Of a stretch of DNA of 64,000 nt, positions 8,046 to 60,286 are shown piece by piece. Where the stretch lies: positions 124,690 through 188,689 of the forward strand of contig CAJLCI010000001.1 in the NCBI GenBank assembly GCA_905205065.1, read 5' to 3'. The notes under the pieces were generated by a model. The model was not told the DNA's origin. It saw only the letters and a list, made by a program, of their open reading frames with translations, and did no database searches. Made by a program: the position numbers and the translations under genes. The stretch is from an uncultured Eubacteriales bacterium (GTDB taxonomy: Bacteria; Bacillota; Clostridia; Oscillospirales; CAG-272). Each line of letters begins with the position of its first letter. The first letter of the stretch is position 1.

Positions 8046-8419
8046 TTTTAATAAGTTTGACTTTACAAGCGCCAGATACTGCATTTTTCAGTGTGAGTTT
8101 ATTTTCCCACTGAAACGCAAAGAAACTAATACGCCAGTAATACTCCAGGTATAATTACAATCGTTTATAAGATCCGATCCGTGTCTTGCAAACTTGTCGA
8201 AGCGTTACTTAAATTTAAATCAAATTTAATTCTTAACAAACTTTTGAGAATAATCTTCATAACTACAGCAATAATATTAATCAGAACAAGAAGGTCAGAA
8301 AGCAATCTTAGGATCAGCCCGTAATTTCAGGCTACAGAAATTCTGTGGTTTGTATATCCTGCTTCGTTCGTGATATTTCAGTTAATTAAACCCACAATTA
8401 TTAAAAGGAGTCCAATTAC

Positions 8420-8560
8420 AGTTAAGGGATACAGACCTCCCCGGCTGCCCTGAGTTTGAGCCGCTATACGCGTCTCACCACGGCATACCGGGAAGTTGGG
8501 AGTACAAATTGGCAGTGGAGGACACCTACCTTGCGAGAGCAGGGTTTTTAATTGCTGAAT
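8420..8560 (+). ncRNA. Candidate structured RNA or R-element relative upstream of the sipL-like gene
   Basis: Nested pairings cctcc..ctgcc / ggcag.ggagg enclose about 80 nt. A ccttgc-GAGA-gcaggg hairpin followed by a T-run comes next. The 3' part (ggaggacacctaccttgcgag) resembles the R2/R5 3' ends. Confidence 0.35.
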
Positions 8561-8720
8561 ACACGGCGAAGCGGGTTTTTTTATTTTCCATGAATATTTC
8601 CGAACTGTTGTGCATAATATGAAACAAGACCATTTTTTATACAGCAGCTCCGCAACTTACACAGCTTATACTCATCTGCAGTTGCTTTTAGTTATACTTA
8701 TAGTAAAAGGAGAATTCAAA

Positions 8721-55798: not shown

Positions 55799-55827
55799 AT
55801 TGACTATCTATCCTTTTAATATTATAA
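55799..55827 (+). promoter_or_regulatory. Sigma-A-type promoter (TTGACT-17-TATAAT)
   Basis: The hexamers were read directly and lie upstream of the aldolase gene. Confidence 0.55.
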
Positions 55828-55882
55828 TAATAAAAATGAAGTATGTCAACAAAATCATTTCATATCAGATAGGAGTATAAAA

Positions 55883-56878
55883 ATGTCTGTTGTATCAGAT
55901 TACAAAAAAGTTAAAGAAATATACCAAAAGGCCGCGGAAAAAGGATGGGTAATTCCCTGCATCTGTTCCGAAAATCTCACTACAACCGAAGCAATCTTTT
56001 CAGCGGCGGAGGACTTTGCCGTCTCGCACGAACTCGATTCCGTTCCGGTTACAATTGCAATGACGGTAAAATACAGCCACCGCCCGCAAGCTACATACTA
56101 TACACACAGCCGCCGCGCTGACATCGGTCTCCGCTGCTTCCGCGCGGACGCCGAAATACTTTCGGAGGTATATCCCCACGTTACGGCTATGCTTCACTTA
56201 GACCATGTTCAGCCGATTGACGACAGTGACCTGCTTAACAGCGATCTTTCGGGCTACGCTTCGATAATGTATGACGCTTCAGCCTTTCCCTTTGAGCAAA
56301 ATATAAAAATGACTTCGGATTTTGTAGATAGGATGAACGACAAAATCCTCATAGAGGGAGCATGCGACGAAATATACGACGCGGGCGGATCGACTCACAA
56401 TTCAATCACAACAGCGGAGGACGCAAAACGCTTTATAGACGAAACCCGAGTTGATTTGATTGTATGCAATCTCGGAACAGAACACCGCGCGTCAGGAAAA
56501 GATTTAAAATATTACGGAGACGCCGCACGCAAAATCCGCGACGCTATAGGAGAAAAAATAGTCCTTCACGGCACCTCATCGGTAACGGCCGATCAGATTA
56601 AAACTCTTTTTGCCGACGGCGTATGCAAGGTAAATATCTGGACAGCGGTCGAACGCGATTCTTCTCCTGTGCTTCTCCGCTGGATGGCGGAAAACGCGTC
56701 GCTTATAGGCGGAGCCGCAGCAGTAGACAAACTGATAGAGGAAGGTTATCTCGGAAACCGCTGTAAAACAGGAGAATCCGCTTCGCTGAAATACTTCACC
56801 ACCGAAGCGCGCCAGCAGATAGTCTTTGAGGAAATGAAAAAAATAGTCAGAGCGTACTTCGATCTCTGGTACGTATAA
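55883..56878 (+). CDS. Class II ketose-bisphosphate aldolase family protein (FBA/tagatose-bisphosphate type)
   Basis: LHLDH, GTEH and HGTSS are zinc- and phosphate-binding motifs of class II aldolases. Confidence 0.8.
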   Translation: MSVVSDYKKVKEIYQKAAEKGWVIPCICSENLTTTEAIFSAAEDFAVSHELDSVPVTIAMTVKYSHRPQATYYTHSRRADIGLRCFRADAEILSEVYPHVTAMLHLDHVQPIDDSDLLNSDLSGYASIMYDASAFPFEQNIKMTSDFVDRMNDKILIEGACDEIYDAGGSTHNSITTAEDAKRFIDETRVDLIVCNLGTEHRASGKDLKYYGDAARKIRDAIGEKIVLHGTSSVTADQIKTLFADGVCKVNIWTAVERDSSPVLLRWMAENASLIGGAAAVDKLIEEGYLGNRCKTGESASLKYFTTEARQQIVFEEMKKIVRAYFDLWYV

Positions 56879-56915
56879 TGCTTTATCTTTTTTTCGATTT
56901 TTTTTGACAAAATGC

Positions 56916-56944
56916 TTGACAAACCTTTAATCGTGTGATATAAT
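56916..56944 (+). promoter_or_regulatory. Consensus sigma-A promoter (TTGACA-17-TATAAT) with no downstream CDS
   Basis: Both hexamers are perfect and the spacer is 17 bp. The next plus-strand gene is 4 kb away. Confidence 0.65.
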
Positions 56945-56949
56945 TATTA

Positions 56950-57372
56950 ATAGATAGAAATATTATCCATTTAGCTTTTGCTTTTTAATTAAATACCGTC
57001 TGAACCGGCAGGACATAAAAGAACGCCGGCAGATTTGTTGGATTCCCGTCCAACATCTCCTGATATTCATGTGCCGAACACACATAAATACCCACCGGAA
57101 TCCCGGCGCCGACGTGAGATATATTATAACATACTTTATTTTATATTTCAAGAGGTTTGCCGAAAAAAACCGAATTAGAGGACAAACGGTTTTGACTCTC
57201 AACCTATGTACCGTCTTTGGTCGTTGAAGTTTTAAAGCCTTTTCCCTCATTTTCAAGTTTTTGGATTCTTAAACCTTTTTTCAAAAAGGTTTAAGCCTCC
57301 GCAGGATTATTCTTCGATTTGTATTATACAAAATCGGGGCGTTGTGTTTGTGCACATGCCCCGATTTTTTTG
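56950..57372 (+). ncRNA. Candidate non-coding transcript of about 420 nt (promoter to terminator) of unknown family
   Basis: It is bounded by the 56916 promoter and the 57333 terminator. The longest plus-strand ATG ORF is under 10 codons. Perfect local hairpins include tgttgga/tccaaca and cttaaacctttt/aaaaggtttaag. Confidence 0.45.
57333..57372 (+). terminator. Strong intrinsic terminator
   Basis: The 8-bp GC-rich stem atcggggc/gccccgat is followed by TTTTTTT. Confidence 0.8.
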
Positions 57373-57503
57373 TTTTCTCTTTTTTAAATCATTCAAAAGA
57401 AAAGGACGTGATTTATTTTGTCAGAGCCAAGCGGAAGCATCTGCCGCAGGCAGAGCTGTCTCAGTCCGGTTAAAATTGAATAGAATTGACTGTCAGTTTT
57501 GAA

Positions 57504-57538
57504 CCGGAAATTAATTTCCTTCGGAGTTAATCTTCCGG
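57504..57538 (+). repeat. Module X1 (stem ccggaa/ttccgg enclosing TTCGGAGTTAATC)
   Basis: It aligns with X2 at 58490 and shares the upstream ttttgaa. Confidence 0.7.
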
Positions 57539-57892
57539 GCAAAAAAGCCGCAGCGGAGCATGAGAGGTTCCCGCCTCCCATGTCCGAACTCGGAGTTGCC
57601 GAACCAACGCCCAAGTCACTTCTGCGGTAACTGATAGTTTAACACATTCTTTGCGTTTTGTCAACACCTTTTAACGATAACAATCTCAAGCTGTCTTAAG
57701 TTGTTTCAAGTCGTTTCAAGTCGTTTTTAATTTGGTAAAACCGGGCCAACTGAATTGTGTCGGACTTTAGTGCCGTGAAATAAAAACCAGAAGTGCGCTG
57801 TCAGCTTTAGCTTTCAGTATTTAATACGAAAAGTTTGCAGTGTAATTCAGAGCGATACAATTTGATTTAGGATAATTCAATATGTTTCAGAA

Positions 57893-58006
57893 TGATTTAA
57901 TTTGATTCAGTTTGATTCAATAGATTCGGTCTGATTCAATAGATTTAATCTGATTCAATAGATTTAGTCTGATTCAATAGATTCAGTTTGATTCAGCGTG
58001 ATTTTA
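57893..58006. repeat. 19-bp tandem array of 6 units (ctgattcaatagatttagt and variants)
   Basis: The units are contiguous head to tail and were indexed by hand. Confidence 0.9.
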
Positions 58007-58134
58007 GCTGCATGCGGCGCGAGCCGCGGCTACCAATGCAGCCGAAAGTATCACATTGCAAAGCTTGTCAGCATTGATAAAGTGTTGAGGAAAAGTGTTT
58101 TTTCCCATAGCGTGTACCACATGCTATAACACGT

Positions 58135-58160
58135 CGCGTAAAAGAAGCCGCGCAAGCGGC
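58135..58160 (+). repeat. Module Z1 (cgcgtaaaagaa plus hairpin gccgc-GCAA-gcggc)
   Basis: It aligns with Z2 at 58989. The hairpin has a GNRA loop. Confidence 0.7.
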
Positions 58161-58288
58161 GTCTGTCGCAGAAACTGTTTACCTGTTTACTCAAAAAGTT
58201 AAACGTAAAAGGTAAACGTAATTGGAAGTCTACGCGTTGCGATATTCCACAATTCCGAGTTTTACGCCTGCCGGTATTTTTCCCGGAG

Positions 58289-58323
58289 GTTGACTTATCC
58301 GGTCTGTGCCGTTGATTTGTGCC
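58289..58323 (+). repeat. Module Y1 (ttgacttatccggtctgtgccgttgatttgtgcc)
   Basis: It aligns with Y2 at 59139, 850 bp away, and more weakly with 57192-57224. Confidence 0.65.
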
Positions 58324-58489
58324 AATGTTTTTTACTGTCTGTTTATGACATCAATTTTTGATGTTGGTTTGCAGTCCGCTCTATTGGTCTCTGCCGTAAT
58401 TTCTGCATTGCGGCAGGTAACATGCGCGGCACAGCCGAATTATAATAAACATTTCTCAGGTATTTTTCTGCATAATGCTTTTTGAATCG

Positions 58490-58528
58490 CCGAGAAATGT
58501 TACTTTCTTTCGGAGTTAATCTTCTCGG
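58490..58528 (+). repeat. Module X2 (stem ccgagaa/ttctcgg enclosing TTCGGAGTTAATC)
   Basis: It aligns with X1. The stem carries an extra A on one arm, matched by an extra T on the other. Confidence 0.7.
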
Positions 58529-58847
58529 ATAAACGGAATCGCAGAGAATGCAAAAGTCAAAAAACGCACTCAAAAGCTTAAAGCTGATATAAAAGCTATG
58601 CGCCAAAAAATTAAGCTTACATCAAATTGAATGTTCGGCTTTTGTATCTCATTTATATACTTGGGGTTGTGCAAGCGGCGCTCAAGCCGCTCCTGTCTTT
58701 CGGAGCGCGCTTGCAGTCATGAATGCAAGTCATGCATGCGGAAGGTCTTCCGCCATGATACGGCGCCGGGGCGAATGTGGATTTAGGCTTAACGTTTTCA
58801 CAGCGTTAACATGTCAAACGAAATTGAAGCATCGTCGGGATACAGTT

Positions 58848-58984
58848 GAAAGACGCTGAAACGACACTGAACGCAGCTGAAGCGATGTCCGGCGCAGTGA
58901 AACATACGCCGAACGAAGTTAAAGCGGCGTTAAAGCGATGCTAAACGCAGTGAGACATTCGTCAAACGCAGTGAGACGTTCTGC
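58848..58984. repeat. Degenerate tandem array of about 21 bp (aaacgcagtgagacattcgtc and variants, about 6 units)
   Basis: The two 3' units are nearly identical. The upstream units become progressively more diverged. Confidence 0.7.
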
Positions 58985-58988
58985 ACAT

Positions 58989-59014
58989 CGTGTAAAAGAA
59001 ACCGCGCGAGCGGT
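58989..59014 (+). repeat. Module Z2 (cgtgtaaaagaa plus hairpin accgc-GCGA-gcggt)
   Basis: It aligns with Z1. The closing pair changes from G-C to A-T in a compensated way, and the GNRA loop is kept. Confidence 0.7.
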
Positions 59015-59138
59015 TACACTTCCGCAAAGTACGTCTGTTTTTAAAGCTTTAAAAGCAAAGGCCGCGCGTATTTTGTGTTGCGTTAGCCCGCAATATCAAG
59101 TTTTTTCTGTTCTGTACAGAAAATTGTTTGTCCTTGAA

Positions 59139-59172
59139 ATTAACTTATCCGGTCATGCCGTTCATTCGGCAC
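59139..59172 (+). repeat. Module Y2 (ttaacttatccggtcatgccgttcattcggcac)
   Basis: It aligns with Y1. It sits inside a 9-bp outer stem atccggtca/tgaccggat that is followed by TTTTTT. Confidence 0.65.
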
Positions 59173-59215
59173 AGTCTTCTGACTGTGTTCGTCTGGCGCG
59201 GTCTGACCGGATTTT

Positions 59216-60286
59216 TTATTCACCGCTTTCGGTTTCCGAAACATCCGTAGCTGATATATCAACAAAATCGTAAAATGCAGACATAATAGATTCCGCAAAT
59301 TTTCTTTCTGCTTCCGGAGAAAAAAGAGCTTCTTCTCTGATCTCGGAAACCGGAATATGCATTTTCAGCTCAAGATTTCCGGAGCTTTTCATTGATCTTC
59401 CGGACGGAATACATTGCAGAGGCATGCCGCAGCTTTCAAGAATCACATCGGAAACAACGGCACTCGGTATATCGTCATATTCAAGGGCAGAAGCAAGCTC
59501 AGTCATTGATACTGCGCCTTTTGTCACTCTTCCGATTCTGTCAATCTCAGCATGCAAGGACGCGGATATTTCTCCGTCCTCACATAAGATTTCAGCATGA
59601 CAGTCTCCGTCCGAGCATTTAAGCATAAGCATTACCGCAGGAACAAAAGTGTAAATAAAACGCGCAAGCTCCCAAACCGCAACACGCCCCGACATCGTAT
59701 TAATAAGCTCTACAGAAAGCCTGTAACCGAGAATTCTGACCCGTTTAATCAAAATGTCTCGCATGCAGTCAATAAAAAACGCGGCAGGAACAGCTCGCTT
59801 TTCAAGTTTTCCGTTAAATCCCTCGCTCACATCATAAAGCATTGTATTCCGTCGAGTATAATTCCATGCCGCCGCAGGCGCCTGTATGTCGTTAAGCTCT
59901 CCCTGCGAGACAACAAATTCAGTCAAACGGCTTCCCGCGCAAAGCGAAACAGATCTTGCGTACTCAAGAAGAGCGTCGCTGACATTCCTTTGCAGTATAT
60001 TTAGGAATATAAATGCAGTTCTGCGCTCCCCGTTATAATTATAGCATCCGGCAAGCGAATTACGACACATTGAATACGTATTATCAAATACAATTATGTC
60101 ATATCTTTCTATCGTATCGCATCTCATCTGCAAATAAGAATCATATCCGACTGCAGAAAGATAACGTATAAGCGGGGTTCCTTTGCGGCATCCCGGAAGC
60201 AGCTTCTTCGCTGCCGCATTTTTGTAAATCAGTCTTCCGCCGCCGTCCGCAACAATTATCGGCGTTGCTGTTAAATCCAAATTCAT
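59216..60286 (-). CDS. Hypothetical protein with a PAS-like N-terminus and an acidic C-terminal tail
   Basis: The 356-aa ORF contains PIIVADGGGRLIYKNAAAKKLL, which resembles the start of a PAS fold. The middle region faintly resembles a degenerate GHKL fold. I recognise no confident family. Confidence 0.5.
   Translation of the reverse strand: MNLDLTATPIIVADGGGRLIYKNAAAKKLLPGCRKGTPLIRYLSAVGYDSYLQMRCDTIERYDIIVFDNTYSMCRNSLAGCYNYNGERRTAFIFLNILQRNVSDALLEYARSVSLCAGSRLTEFVVSQGELNDIQAPAAAWNYTRRNTMLYDVSEGFNGKLEKRAVPAAFFIDCMRDILIKRVRILGYRLSVELINTMSGRVAVWELARFIYTFVPAVMLMLKCSDGDCHAEILCEDGEISASLHAEIDRIGRVTKGAVSMTELASALEYDDIPSAVVSDVILESCGMPLQCIPSGRSMKSSGNLELKMHIPVSEIREEALFSPEAERKFAESIMSAFYDFVDISATDVSETESGE

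Follow-up and report, generated by a model that had tools for sequence, protein, structure and literature searches.

An uncultured Eubacteriales bacterium carries, within a 64-kb stretch of its DNA (GenBank assembly GCA_905205065.1, contig CAJLCI010000001.1; the whole of this stretch is referred to below as the window), an interval in which a consensus promoter and a strong terminator enclose about 420 nucleotides (nt). What does this interval produce, and on what could its product act? An earlier note, made from the sequence alone, described an orphan transcript without a known family and without a gene to regulate. The comparison of homologous loci presented here suggests another answer. The interval is read as encoding the sense transcript, RNA A, of an antisense-RNA switch that is self-contained, exists in multiple copies and would operate through two kissing loops, as in the plasmid systems of pCF10 and pIP501, and this reading is given a probability of about one half. 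The evidence that carries it is a second, separately encoded small RNA (sRNA), termed B, whose two loops change in step with two loops of A.

Copies outside the window were found with exact-pattern scans that used the most conserved core of A, and a second scan with a pattern derived from B added more genomes, including metagenome-assembled genomes (MAGs) from mouse and chicken gut. At least 40 loci of uncultured gut Clostridia carry the module, with several copies per genome, while the window holds a single copy. The module consists of a consensus promoter followed by one or two A units and a terminator, a minus-strand promoter internal to A, an 11-mer resembling a Shine-Dalgarno (SD) sequence with a miniature open reading frame (mini-ORF) behind it, and the convergent sRNA B. 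It is about 700 nt long and lies at 56976-57670 of the window, with bounds taken from continuous conservation, from the terminator of A to the promoter of B, in about 30-35 loci.

RNA A

The following features, all on the plus strand, make up RNA A and its signals in the window.

56916-56944, plus strand: P_A, the promoter of RNA A, TTGACA-17-TGaTATAAT, 12 of 12 consensus positions plus a TG extended -10, with a T-rich stretch upstream
56951-57372, plus strand: RNA A, about 420 nt from its predicted start to the end of the T-run, with homologous units in at least 40 loci
56998-57029, plus strand: 5' H-type pseudoknot, made of Pa (56998-57001/57011-57014) and Pb (57005-57009/57025-57029) with an A-rich linker
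57036-57055, plus strand: hairpin 2 (hp2), stem TGTTGGA/TCCAACA, with the hypervariable loop TTCCCG at 57043-57048, the first specificity loop; 6 of 7 pairs show compensatory changes
57069-57085, plus strand: hairpin 3 (hp3), invariant stem ATGTG/CACAT, with the hypervariable loop CCGAACA at 57074-57080, the second specificity loop
57086-57115, plus strand: near-invariant core AAATACCCACCGGAATCCCGGCGCCGACG, which contains hairpin 4 (hp4; 57095-57098/57103-57106)
57268-57295, plus strand: hairpin of 12 base pairs (bp) (CTTAAACCTTTT / AAAAGGTTTAAG), the unit boundary in tandem arrays
57333-57372, plus strand: T_A, the intrinsic terminator of A, with arms at 57333-57340 (ATCGGGGC) and 57358-57365 (GCCCCGAT), an extended inner stem and a T-run to 57371

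The perfect promoter and the terminator with a GC stem and T-run that the earlier note had placed at these positions are both confirmed. In P_A, which is read as a strong sigma-A promoter, TTGACA occupies 56916-56921 and TATAAT 56939-56944, and the extended -10, which the note had not listed, adds a TG one base before the -10 hexamer; the site is one of two 12/12 matches in 5 kb. Calls of this kind are consensus matches and become credible only through their pattern of conservation. A near-consensus promoter (TTGACA-17/18-TGnTAWAAT, 10-12 of 12 positions) stands upstream of the first A unit in 34 of the 34 loci that reach that far, and is perfect in 15 of them. Downstream of the last A unit, 30 of 32 loci have a hairpin whose core resembles TGTG...CACAT, with A, G or T ahead of TGTG, and a T-run behind it. 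One P_A serves either one A unit or two in tandem (two in L083, L113, L081, L143 and L163). In most loci the predicted transcript start coincides with the A unit itself, and the clade of the window has an additional 5' segment of about 40 nt; across modules, the predicted length of RNA A is about 300-420 nt. The 422-nt RNA A of the window has a minimum free energy (MFE) of -126 kcal/mol, compared to -86 +/- 5 for dinucleotide shuffles (z = -7.5).

The fold was examined in an alignment of 42 A units over about 180 nt (alignment A2). In its helices 97.7% of cells are paired, and 10 pairs, among them the six of hp2, show compensatory changes. None of 500 shuffles equalled this, slid controls reached at most 42%, and RNAalifold independently recovers the same helices. 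The covariation test on homologous loci that the earlier note had proposed thus supports the fold of A, and the three hairpins that it had listed (57036-57055, 57069-57085 and 57268-57295) are all borne out.

At the 5' end, Pa has the form GUCY/RGAC, and its loop carries CCGGC, which pairs with GCCGG past the A-rich linker to form Pb. Pa has at least 4 bp in 41 of the 42 units, with the variants GCUC/GAGC, GCCC/GGGC and UAUCC/GGAUA, and two pairs of Pb show compensatory changes. An invariant CCUGAU separates hp2 from hp3, whose stem is unchanged in all 42 units save for one U-G in one unit. The core that follows is near-invariant, with the consensus ACCCACCGGAAUCCCGGCRCCGAC, and its hp4 has two compensatory pairs. 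The 12-bp hairpin is found in several clades, while others have a shorter hairpin instead. Variability within A is greatest in the loops of hp2 and hp3, and 23 of the 42 hp2 loops begin with a YUNR U-turn-like motif. The helices of A contain 15 G-U cells versus 13 A-C cells, a near balance which fits a region that folds on both strands.

The stem motif of hp3 (AUGUG/CACAU, 57069-57085) is repeated as the apical stem of T_A (57341-57357), in 30 of 32 loci. This repetition could reflect alternative pairing or a shared protein-binding site. A four-way constraint involving T_A would account for the unvarying hp3 stem and is hinted at by the repeated motif, yet a 5-bp exchange is energetically unconvincing.

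The earlier note could not match the interval to known RNA families, and the Rfam search that it had suggested leads to the same result. Against the Rfam 15 covariance models, which include 6S, tmRNA, RNase P, SRP, riboswitches, T-box, C4, plasmid counter-transcribed RNAs and OLE/GOLLD/ROOL/HEARO, the module region stays below the gathering scores. At E<=10 it yields noise only, such as microRNA models at 27 bits versus a gathering score of 91, and the homologue L123 behaves likewise. ARAGORN found no tRNA or tmRNA in 56800-59300. Hammerhead and other small ribozyme cores, and a tRNA-like nature of B, were considered by eye and are unsupported, as the core motifs are absent and neither Rfam nor ARAGORN gives a match.

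It had also been claimed that the longest plus-strand ATG ORFs in the interval have 5-8 codons. This is wrong, since a 52-amino-acid (aa) ATG ORF is present at 57069-57227. Two other ORFs overlap A, a 47-aa TTG ORF at 57035-57178 on the plus strand and a 97-aa ORF at 56963-57256 on the minus strand, and none of the three is conserved. The 52-aa frame begins in the hp3 stem without an SD sequence and is closed within 5 codons in 11 of the 42 units and within 16 codons in 15 of them. In addition, the insertions and deletions that separate the window from its closest relative, L001, are not multiples of three. A protein-coding gene inside A is therefore rejected.

The convergent small RNA B

Some 170 nt past the terminator of A, the window contains a second, predicted RNA gene that the earlier note had missed.

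57541-57630, minus strand: sRNA B, a three-way junction of about 90 nt that starts at 57630, with P1 at 57548-57553/57622-57627 and a U-run at 57546-57541
57568-57573 and 57599-57604, minus strand: the loops of P3 (CGGGAA in the RNA) and P2 (GUUCGG in the RNA), respectively, the most variable positions of B
57664-57636, minus strand: P_B, the promoter of B, TTGACA-17-TGtTAAACT

In nearly all loci of sufficient length, A is accompanied by a B unit, which always lies 270-470 nt downstream and in constant relative orientation. Its fold has an MFE z-score of -3.0. An alignment of 52 B units (alignment A3) supports the three-way junction: 97.9% of its cells are paired, and compensatory changes are seen at 14-15 pairs. 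About 100 cells are G-U pairs when B is read as a minus-strand RNA, and these become A-C mismatches on the other strand, which identifies the minus strand as the B RNA. Every unit of the B1 type has TTGAC[AT]-17-TGnTAnnnT 4-8 nt upstream of the aligned start and a U-rich tract past the closing helix.

A second subtype, B2, has no promoter of its own; in some loci, three or four such units stand in tandem. Arrays of two or three B2 units were located in L123 (3074-3356), L130 (2944-3306), L142 (4193-4418) and L150 (7655-7817). They have the same three-way junction with different junction sequences, and in loop sequence they are similar to hp2 and hp3 of A units located elsewhere. The arrays of this subtype may serve as a store of further specificities. 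A B-A-B layout was also observed (L122, 2549-3279; L127, 6625-7351; L149, 705-1455), in which the upstream B is divergent from P_A and has loops unlike those of the adjacent A.

Loop co-variation between A and B

When both genes are read on the same DNA strand, the hp2 loop equals the P3 loop of B, and the hp3 loop equals the P2 loop, within matching modules. Eight modules are given below, and further modules obey the same rule.

Window: hp2/P3 TTCCCG; hp3/P2 CCGAAC(A)
L135: hp2/P3 TTCCCG; hp3/P2 CCAAGAA
L123: hp2/P3 CGGCAAA; hp3/P2 CAGACA
L125: hp2/P3 TTGACGG; hp3/P2 GCACAAA
L127: hp2/P3 GTGGTA; hp3/P2 CTCGACA
L162: hp2/P3 GTGGTA; hp3/P2 CTGAAGA
L154: hp2/P3 TTGACCG; hp3/P2 CCCTTAA
L081: hp2/P3 TTGGAG; hp3/P2 GACGAAA

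A is read from the plus strand and B from the minus strand. This means that identity of the loops in DNA is complementarity of the loops in RNA. In the window, UUCCCG of A would pair with CGGGAA of B, and CCGAAC with GUUCGG, and the two contacts lie in antiparallel order (hp2 then hp3 in A, P2 then P3 in B). Of 31 adjacent A/B pairs, 12 agree in both loops, each with a combination of its own, and a further 9 agree in one loop. Both loops are identical in one of 2140 pairs taken from different loci. None of 20000 permutations reached 12 double matches, the maximum being 6.

Around the matching loops, the stems bear no relation to one another; the window, for instance, has UGUUGGA/UCCAACA in A and AUGAGAGG/CCUCCCAU in B. 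Such stem similarities as do exist between A and B run crosswise to the loop matches. Therefore, duplication or gene conversion is an insufficient explanation for the shared loops. Moreover, since the loops reside in a separately encoded partner, their complementarity is not automatic and must be preserved by selection. At the level of sequence comparison, the in-step changes of A and B are the signature of kissing-loop RNA-RNA recognition, and the twelve double-loop combinations show a complementarity that has been kept through at least 12 sequence changes. The unmatched modules may be wired to copies elsewhere, or may be assembly chimeras across conserved cores. The loops of the B of L139, for example, are those of the A of L154.

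An antisense promoter inside A

A promoter on the minus strand, which had also escaped the earlier note, lies within the A unit itself.

57151-57123, minus strand: P_anti, TTGAAA-17-TGtTATAAT, 11 of 12 consensus positions plus TG

P_anti is present in all 42 A units (TTGnAA-17-TGnTATAAT). No variation occurs in the TTG of the -35 element, in the TG or in five of the six -10 bases, and the sixth is conserved in at least 90% of units; the 17-nt spacer is free in sequence and fixed in length. This combination of fixed elements and a free spacer is the pattern expected of a working promoter. P_A and P_anti face each other and overlap by about 165 nt. P_B, the third conserved promoter, is convergent and lies about 500 nt downstream. 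P_anti is predicted to yield a cis-antisense RNA of about 125 nt, from about 57116 to about 56990, that runs across hp4, hp3, hp2 and the pseudoknot. The predicted RNA bears the same two loops as B, in the same order. The mirrored Pb helix together with GGUAUUUAAUU is a possible weak terminator for it near 56990.

The segment beyond the terminator

Between T_A and B, two further conserved features were found.

57401-57411 and 57418-57483, plus strand: SD-like AAAGGACGTGA and a TTG-initiated mini-ORF of 21 codons (MSEPSGSICRRQSCLSPVKIE), respectively
57504-57538: conserved hairpin with covariation, flanked by the mini-ORF and the 3' end of B, from an alignment of 33 loci

The statement in the earlier note that no gene lies downstream is thus questionable, as the SD-like 11-mer and the 21-codon ORF follow the terminator and their position is kept in about 30 loci. 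The 11-mer has the form AAAGGAnGTGA, with T, C or A as its central base in the loci examined, and matches the extended SD consensus of Firmicutes, AAAGGAGGTGA, at 10 of 11 positions. In about 30 loci the start codon lies 4-8 nt past the SD-like element, and the ORF has 12-25 codons and begins with MSDP or MSEP. The peptides are hydrophilic and basic and have no transmembrane segment. In the clade of the window, four of five substitutions in the mini-ORF are synonymous and in third position; in another clade, a variable-loop hairpin occupies the middle of the ORF. Exact look-up of five mini-ORF peptides found none of them. A search of both strands of the gene-free islands for other conserved small ORFs preceded by an SD sequence returned none besides this one, the remaining clusters being by-products of conserved RNA sequence. 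Judged from these patterns, the mini-ORF is probably translated, and it could be a leader-type ORF or encode a fast-evolving peptide. As there is no promoter between T_A and the SD-like element, the mini-ORF would be reachable only through readthrough of T_A.

The NCBI annotation of an identical genome places a 73-aa gene at 57393-57614 on the minus strand, in overlap with sRNA B and, on the opposite strand, with the mini-ORF. This gene call is almost certainly spurious.

Genomic context

The module of the window lies in a gene-free stretch of 2.3 kb (56879-59215) that is flanked by a class-II aldolase gene and by a 356-aa gene to which no family has been assigned. Other copies lie in the same MAG on other contigs, mostly at contig ends, as befits a repeat on which assemblies break, in further uncultured Clostridia and Eubacteriales MAGs, including Candidatus Geddesella stercoravicola, and in contigs from human-gut metagenomes. 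Individual MAGs (CAOKER01, CABUHS01) contain at least 5-7 copies, many of them at contig ends. In the related and syntenic L001, whose aldolase is 93% identical, the promoter, the hairpin stems and the terminator are kept, while the hairpin loops and a 27-nt 5' segment differ.

The neighbors of the module are unrelated housekeeping genes, namely those for aldolase, FGGY kinase, GAPDH, TruB, an HMGL-like enzyme, GH2 and a cell-wall hydrolase. No consistent protein family recurs among the neighbor genes across loci, no mobility genes lie nearby, and no plasmid or conjugative context with rep or tra genes downstream was seen in these flanks. Plasmid and phage collections searched by BLAST, and the viral contigs of IMG/VR searched by three pattern scans, gave no match to the module. 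A search for terminal inverted repeats, of the kind that bound miniature inverted-repeat transposable elements (MITEs) or repetitive extragenic palindromic (REP) elements, found none that bracket 56879-57670; the best long-range inverted pair is 73% identical over 22 nt, and the search was not exhaustive. The ends of the module are set by its promoters. Insertion of the 2.3-kb stretch into an empty site, considered by comparison with L003 and L004, was dropped, as the downstream genes there are unrelated and synteny simply stops.

Assemblies of the same species are identical across the module. The 13 differences between the window and two of them (L165 and L167) all fall in 58688-59167, and none falls in 56879-58687. 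A further NCBI assembly (GCA_003343545.1, contig QALB01000004.1) is 100% identical over the whole region.

The right part of the gene-free stretch has features of its own. An iteron-like tandem repeat at 57875-57995, 6.3 copies of a 19-nt unit (ATTCAATAGATTCAGTCTG), lies to the right of the module and is kept in the closest relatives only. Diverged internal duplications with 79-87% identity relate 58130-58304 to 58984-59154 and 57511-57544 to 58500-58533, and at the last of these positions the hairpin adjacent to the 3' end of B is found again, without a recognizable B. These duplications have the look of a second module that has decayed. In several clades, the gene-free islands also contain, near their right end, a conserved noncoding block (...CACAATCCCGAGTT...CCGGAAGTTAGCTTATCCGG...), found at 58247-58308 and 59127-59154 in the window, at 7498-7563 in L127 and at about 3500-3580 in L123.

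Elsewhere in the window, the region that separates the divergent genes for FGGY kinase and aldolase has two near-consensus promoters arranged back to back, with 12 of 12 positions on the minus strand (55849-55821) and 11 of 12 on the plus strand (55800-55828). A 6S RNA (Rfam RF00013) is present at 8353-8581 on the plus strand, with 59.7 bits versus a gathering score of 46.4, and is the sole Rfam family in the window.

Comparison with known antisense systems

By analogy of layout, the module is closest to the prgQ/prgX region of pCF10, and the attenuators of pIP501 and pT181 are also close. In pCF10 of Enterococcus faecalis, convergent promoters overlap by 223 nt, a 380-nt Qs RNA ends at the terminator IRS1, and the Anti-Q RNA enhances termination, which gives rise to a bistable switch (PMC3181467). 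In the module, similarly, the face-to-face promoters overlap by about 165 nt, the sense RNA runs for about 400 nt to an intrinsic terminator, and a short counter-transcript from the overlap is proposed to act on the nascent sense RNA for reciprocal, switch-like control. Unlike pCF10, the module is chromosomal and multi-copy, without a PrgX-like protein or downstream conjugation genes. Its small ORF lies past the terminator and not ahead of it, it has the additional trans-encoded, convergent sRNA B with the same two loops, and there is no similarity in sequence or in Rfam matches.

In pIP501, a 136-nt antisense RNA, RNAIII, is made inside the leader and acts by transcription attenuation (PMC4981023), and two loop pairs must interact simultaneously, according to Heidrich and Brantl (2007) as cited there. 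As in pIP501, pT181 and pAMbeta1 (RNAIII/RNAI), the antisense promoter of the module lies inside the leader, and the predicted antisense RNA has a length of about 125-136 nt and several stem-loops. The sense leader, as in pIP501 and pT181, ends in an intrinsic terminator (57333-57372) upstream of an SD-like element (57401) and an ORF (57418), both of which are conserved. The two loop pairs recall pIP501, and the YUNR U-turn-like motif with which many hp2 loops open is a further feature in common with these attenuators. In contrast to these plasmids, there is no rep gene, origin or plasmid, no preemptor or antiterminator was identified, the ORF has 12-25 codons, and the specificity loops also occur in the separate gene B.

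Three other systems share parts of the design. The par (Fst) locus of pAD1, with its RNA I and RNA II, and type I toxin-antitoxin (TA) loci in general are small self-contained modules, often multi-copy, with convergent RNAs and complementarity from direct repeats. The module has the same convergence, direct-repeat complementarity, small size and copy number, and its recognition is diversified. It differs in that there is no hydrophobic toxin, the complementarity resides in two loops far upstream of the ribosome-binding site (RBS), and B shares no terminator with A. The c4 RNA of P1 and P7 and the CI RNA of P4 (Rfam C4, RF01695) are small structured RNAs that recognize two short, separated sites in a leader followed by a small ORF, and a few nucleotide changes in these sites separate P1 from P7 (heteroimmunity). 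The module likewise has a small structured RNA against two short, separated leader sites and a small ORF past them, but shows no Rfam C4 match or prophage context, and B has its own promoter and is not processed from the target transcript. In the RNA I/RNA II pair of ColE1, a long sense RNA and a short internal antisense RNA make first contact through kissing loops of 6-7 nt that define incompatibility groups. A long structured sense RNA, a short antisense RNA from within it and loops of 6-7 nt are found here as well. Unlike ColE1, the module has no replicon, its sense RNA stops at a terminator and is not a replication primer, and the second antisense partner is trans-encoded.

A literature search, within a searchable literature that is incomplete, found no prior description of such an A/B pair, only the classical plasmid systems. 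What appears new is a chromosomal, multi-copy module that has no protein gene beyond the mini-ORF, and specificity loops that are duplicated in a separately encoded and structurally different partner.

Proposed mechanism and alternative explanations

One half of the earlier description stands. RNA A is a discrete, strongly promoted, terminated and structured noncoding RNA without a known family, as attested by its promoter in 34 loci, its terminator in 30, the covariation of its helices and the lack of an Rfam match. The other half, a solitary orphan with nothing to regulate, does not stand in view of the promoters on both strands, the co-evolving sRNA pair, the SD-like element with its mini-ORF and the multiple copies. 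In the proposed mechanism, B, together with the cis-antisense RNA that has the same loops, would dock on A, either nascent or finished, by making two kissing-loop contacts at once. The loop pair of each module would serve as a private address that insulates it from its paralogues. Docking would set the balance between termination and readthrough at T_A, by analogy with Anti-Q and Qs of pCF10 and RNAIII of pIP501. Readthrough, in turn, would cover the SD-like element and the mini-ORF and then run antisense across B, so that mutual repression and switch-like behavior could result. The output may lie in the mini-ORF peptide, in its translation or simply in the RNA levels.

Several observations weigh against this mechanism. 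The A, B and cis-antisense transcripts are predictions from the conservation of promoters and terminators. No conserved antiterminator that competes with T_A was seen in MFE folds of 7 family members or on inspection of the 3' halves of 13 clade members, and since T_A is also very strong in the window, the attenuation step is argued by analogy. About one third of adjacent A/B pairs have no loop in common, and 9 of 31 have only one. Three single-base mismatches in otherwise cognate loops (L122, L149 and L163) would be C-A or A-C in the pairing of plus-strand A with minus-strand B; they are transitions that give wobble pairs for the opposite strand combination, and with n = 3 they are too few to weigh. 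Most loci come from MAGs or metagenome contigs, in which chimeric joins across the conserved cores are possible. Finally, the mini-ORF peptide is conserved across clades at its N-terminus only (MSDP/MSEP), varies in length from 12 to 25 aa and is never called by gene callers.

The lack of a conserved antiterminator makes a pure titration or decay model a serious rival, although it is a minority possibility. A would then be a finished, abundant sRNA that soaks up its cognate B as a sponge or decoy, or that B destabilizes, without an output in cis, and the real targets, for example a protein that binds the core, would lie elsewhere. The strong and conserved T_A agrees with this, as do the consensus strength of P_A, which implies high levels of A, and the tandem A units and B2 arrays, which resemble multivalent binders; the invariant core, too, is not accounted for by RNA-RNA pairing. 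It leaves unexplained, however, why an invariant SD-like 11-mer and an always-open mini-ORF come right after T_A and why the internal antisense promoter is conserved, and hypervariable loops of 6-7 nt cannot address conserved external targets. A type I TA-like locus, in which the A leader and mini-ORF would form a toxin mRNA and B a convergent antitoxin RNA acting via dispersed direct repeats, as in par of pAD1, is a rather unlikely explanation. Convergent RNAs with complementarity from direct DNA repeats, multiple copies with diversified specificity, as in paralogous type I families, and a strong SD sequence before a tiny ORF with a long structured 5' region would all suit it, and B is indeed complementary to A at the same locus, through two loops in 12 of 31 pairs and one loop in 9 more. 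The peptides, on the other hand, show by sequence no small hydrophobic or toxic product: they are hydrophilic and basic, 12-25 aa long, lack a transmembrane segment and have only MSDP/MSEP in common. In addition, a strong terminator sits between leader and ORF, and the complementary loops lie 300-400 nt upstream of the RBS and not over it.

Two further explanations have very little probability. A ligand- or protein-sensing leader for the mini-ORF, that is, a riboswitch-like attenuator for which the loop similarity of B is incidental, might be suspected from the 5' pseudoknot with its A-rich linker, the invariant single-stranded nucleotides of the core, the terminator followed by SD and ORF, and the tandem units, which some riboswitches also have. 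It is contradicted by the absence of any Rfam riboswitch or T-box match even at E<=10, by the hypervariability of the two most exposed loops, which co-vary with a separate gene, and by the invariance of the internal antisense promoter. It is just as improbable that the module is a non-functional repeat, either MITE-like or a decayed control region of a plasmid, an integrative and conjugative element or a prophage, with hairpins that are DNA-level features or relics. Such a repeat would be multi-copy, would break assemblies and would lie beside unrelated genes, as observed, and the decayed duplicates and iteron-like repeats in the right part of the gene-free region would fit it. It would not be expected to keep three promoters and a terminator across divergent species, to show compensatory changes and strand-specific G-U pairs in B, or to produce twelve independent double-loop matches; plasmid, phage and viral collections gave no match, no mobility genes lie nearby, and same-species strains are without polymorphism inside the module.

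Implications

Kissing-loop cis-antisense RNAs are textbook plasmid biology. In the reading preferred here, that of an antisense-RNA switch with two kissing loops, the same logic is found in a chromosome and in many copies. The modules would constitute a natural set of apparently orthogonal RNA-RNA recognition pairs on one scaffold, which could help in asking how cross-talk between RNA regulators is avoided and could supply synthetic-circuit parts for Gram-positive anaerobes. With A and B, two structured and so far uncatalogued RNA families emerge from abundant uncultured gut Clostridia, as does a conserved micro-ORF that standard annotation misses.

A more far-reaching and tentative idea, which is possible but not likely, is that the modules together form a protein-free, RNA-only addressable system, with private two-loop codes and spare partners in the B2 arrays. 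They would then act as orthogonal bistable RNA switches, or as a self/non-self or addiction network at the RNA level. If true, diversified toxin-immunity or incompatibility systems would have a noncoding counterpart in the chromosome of gut Clostridia.

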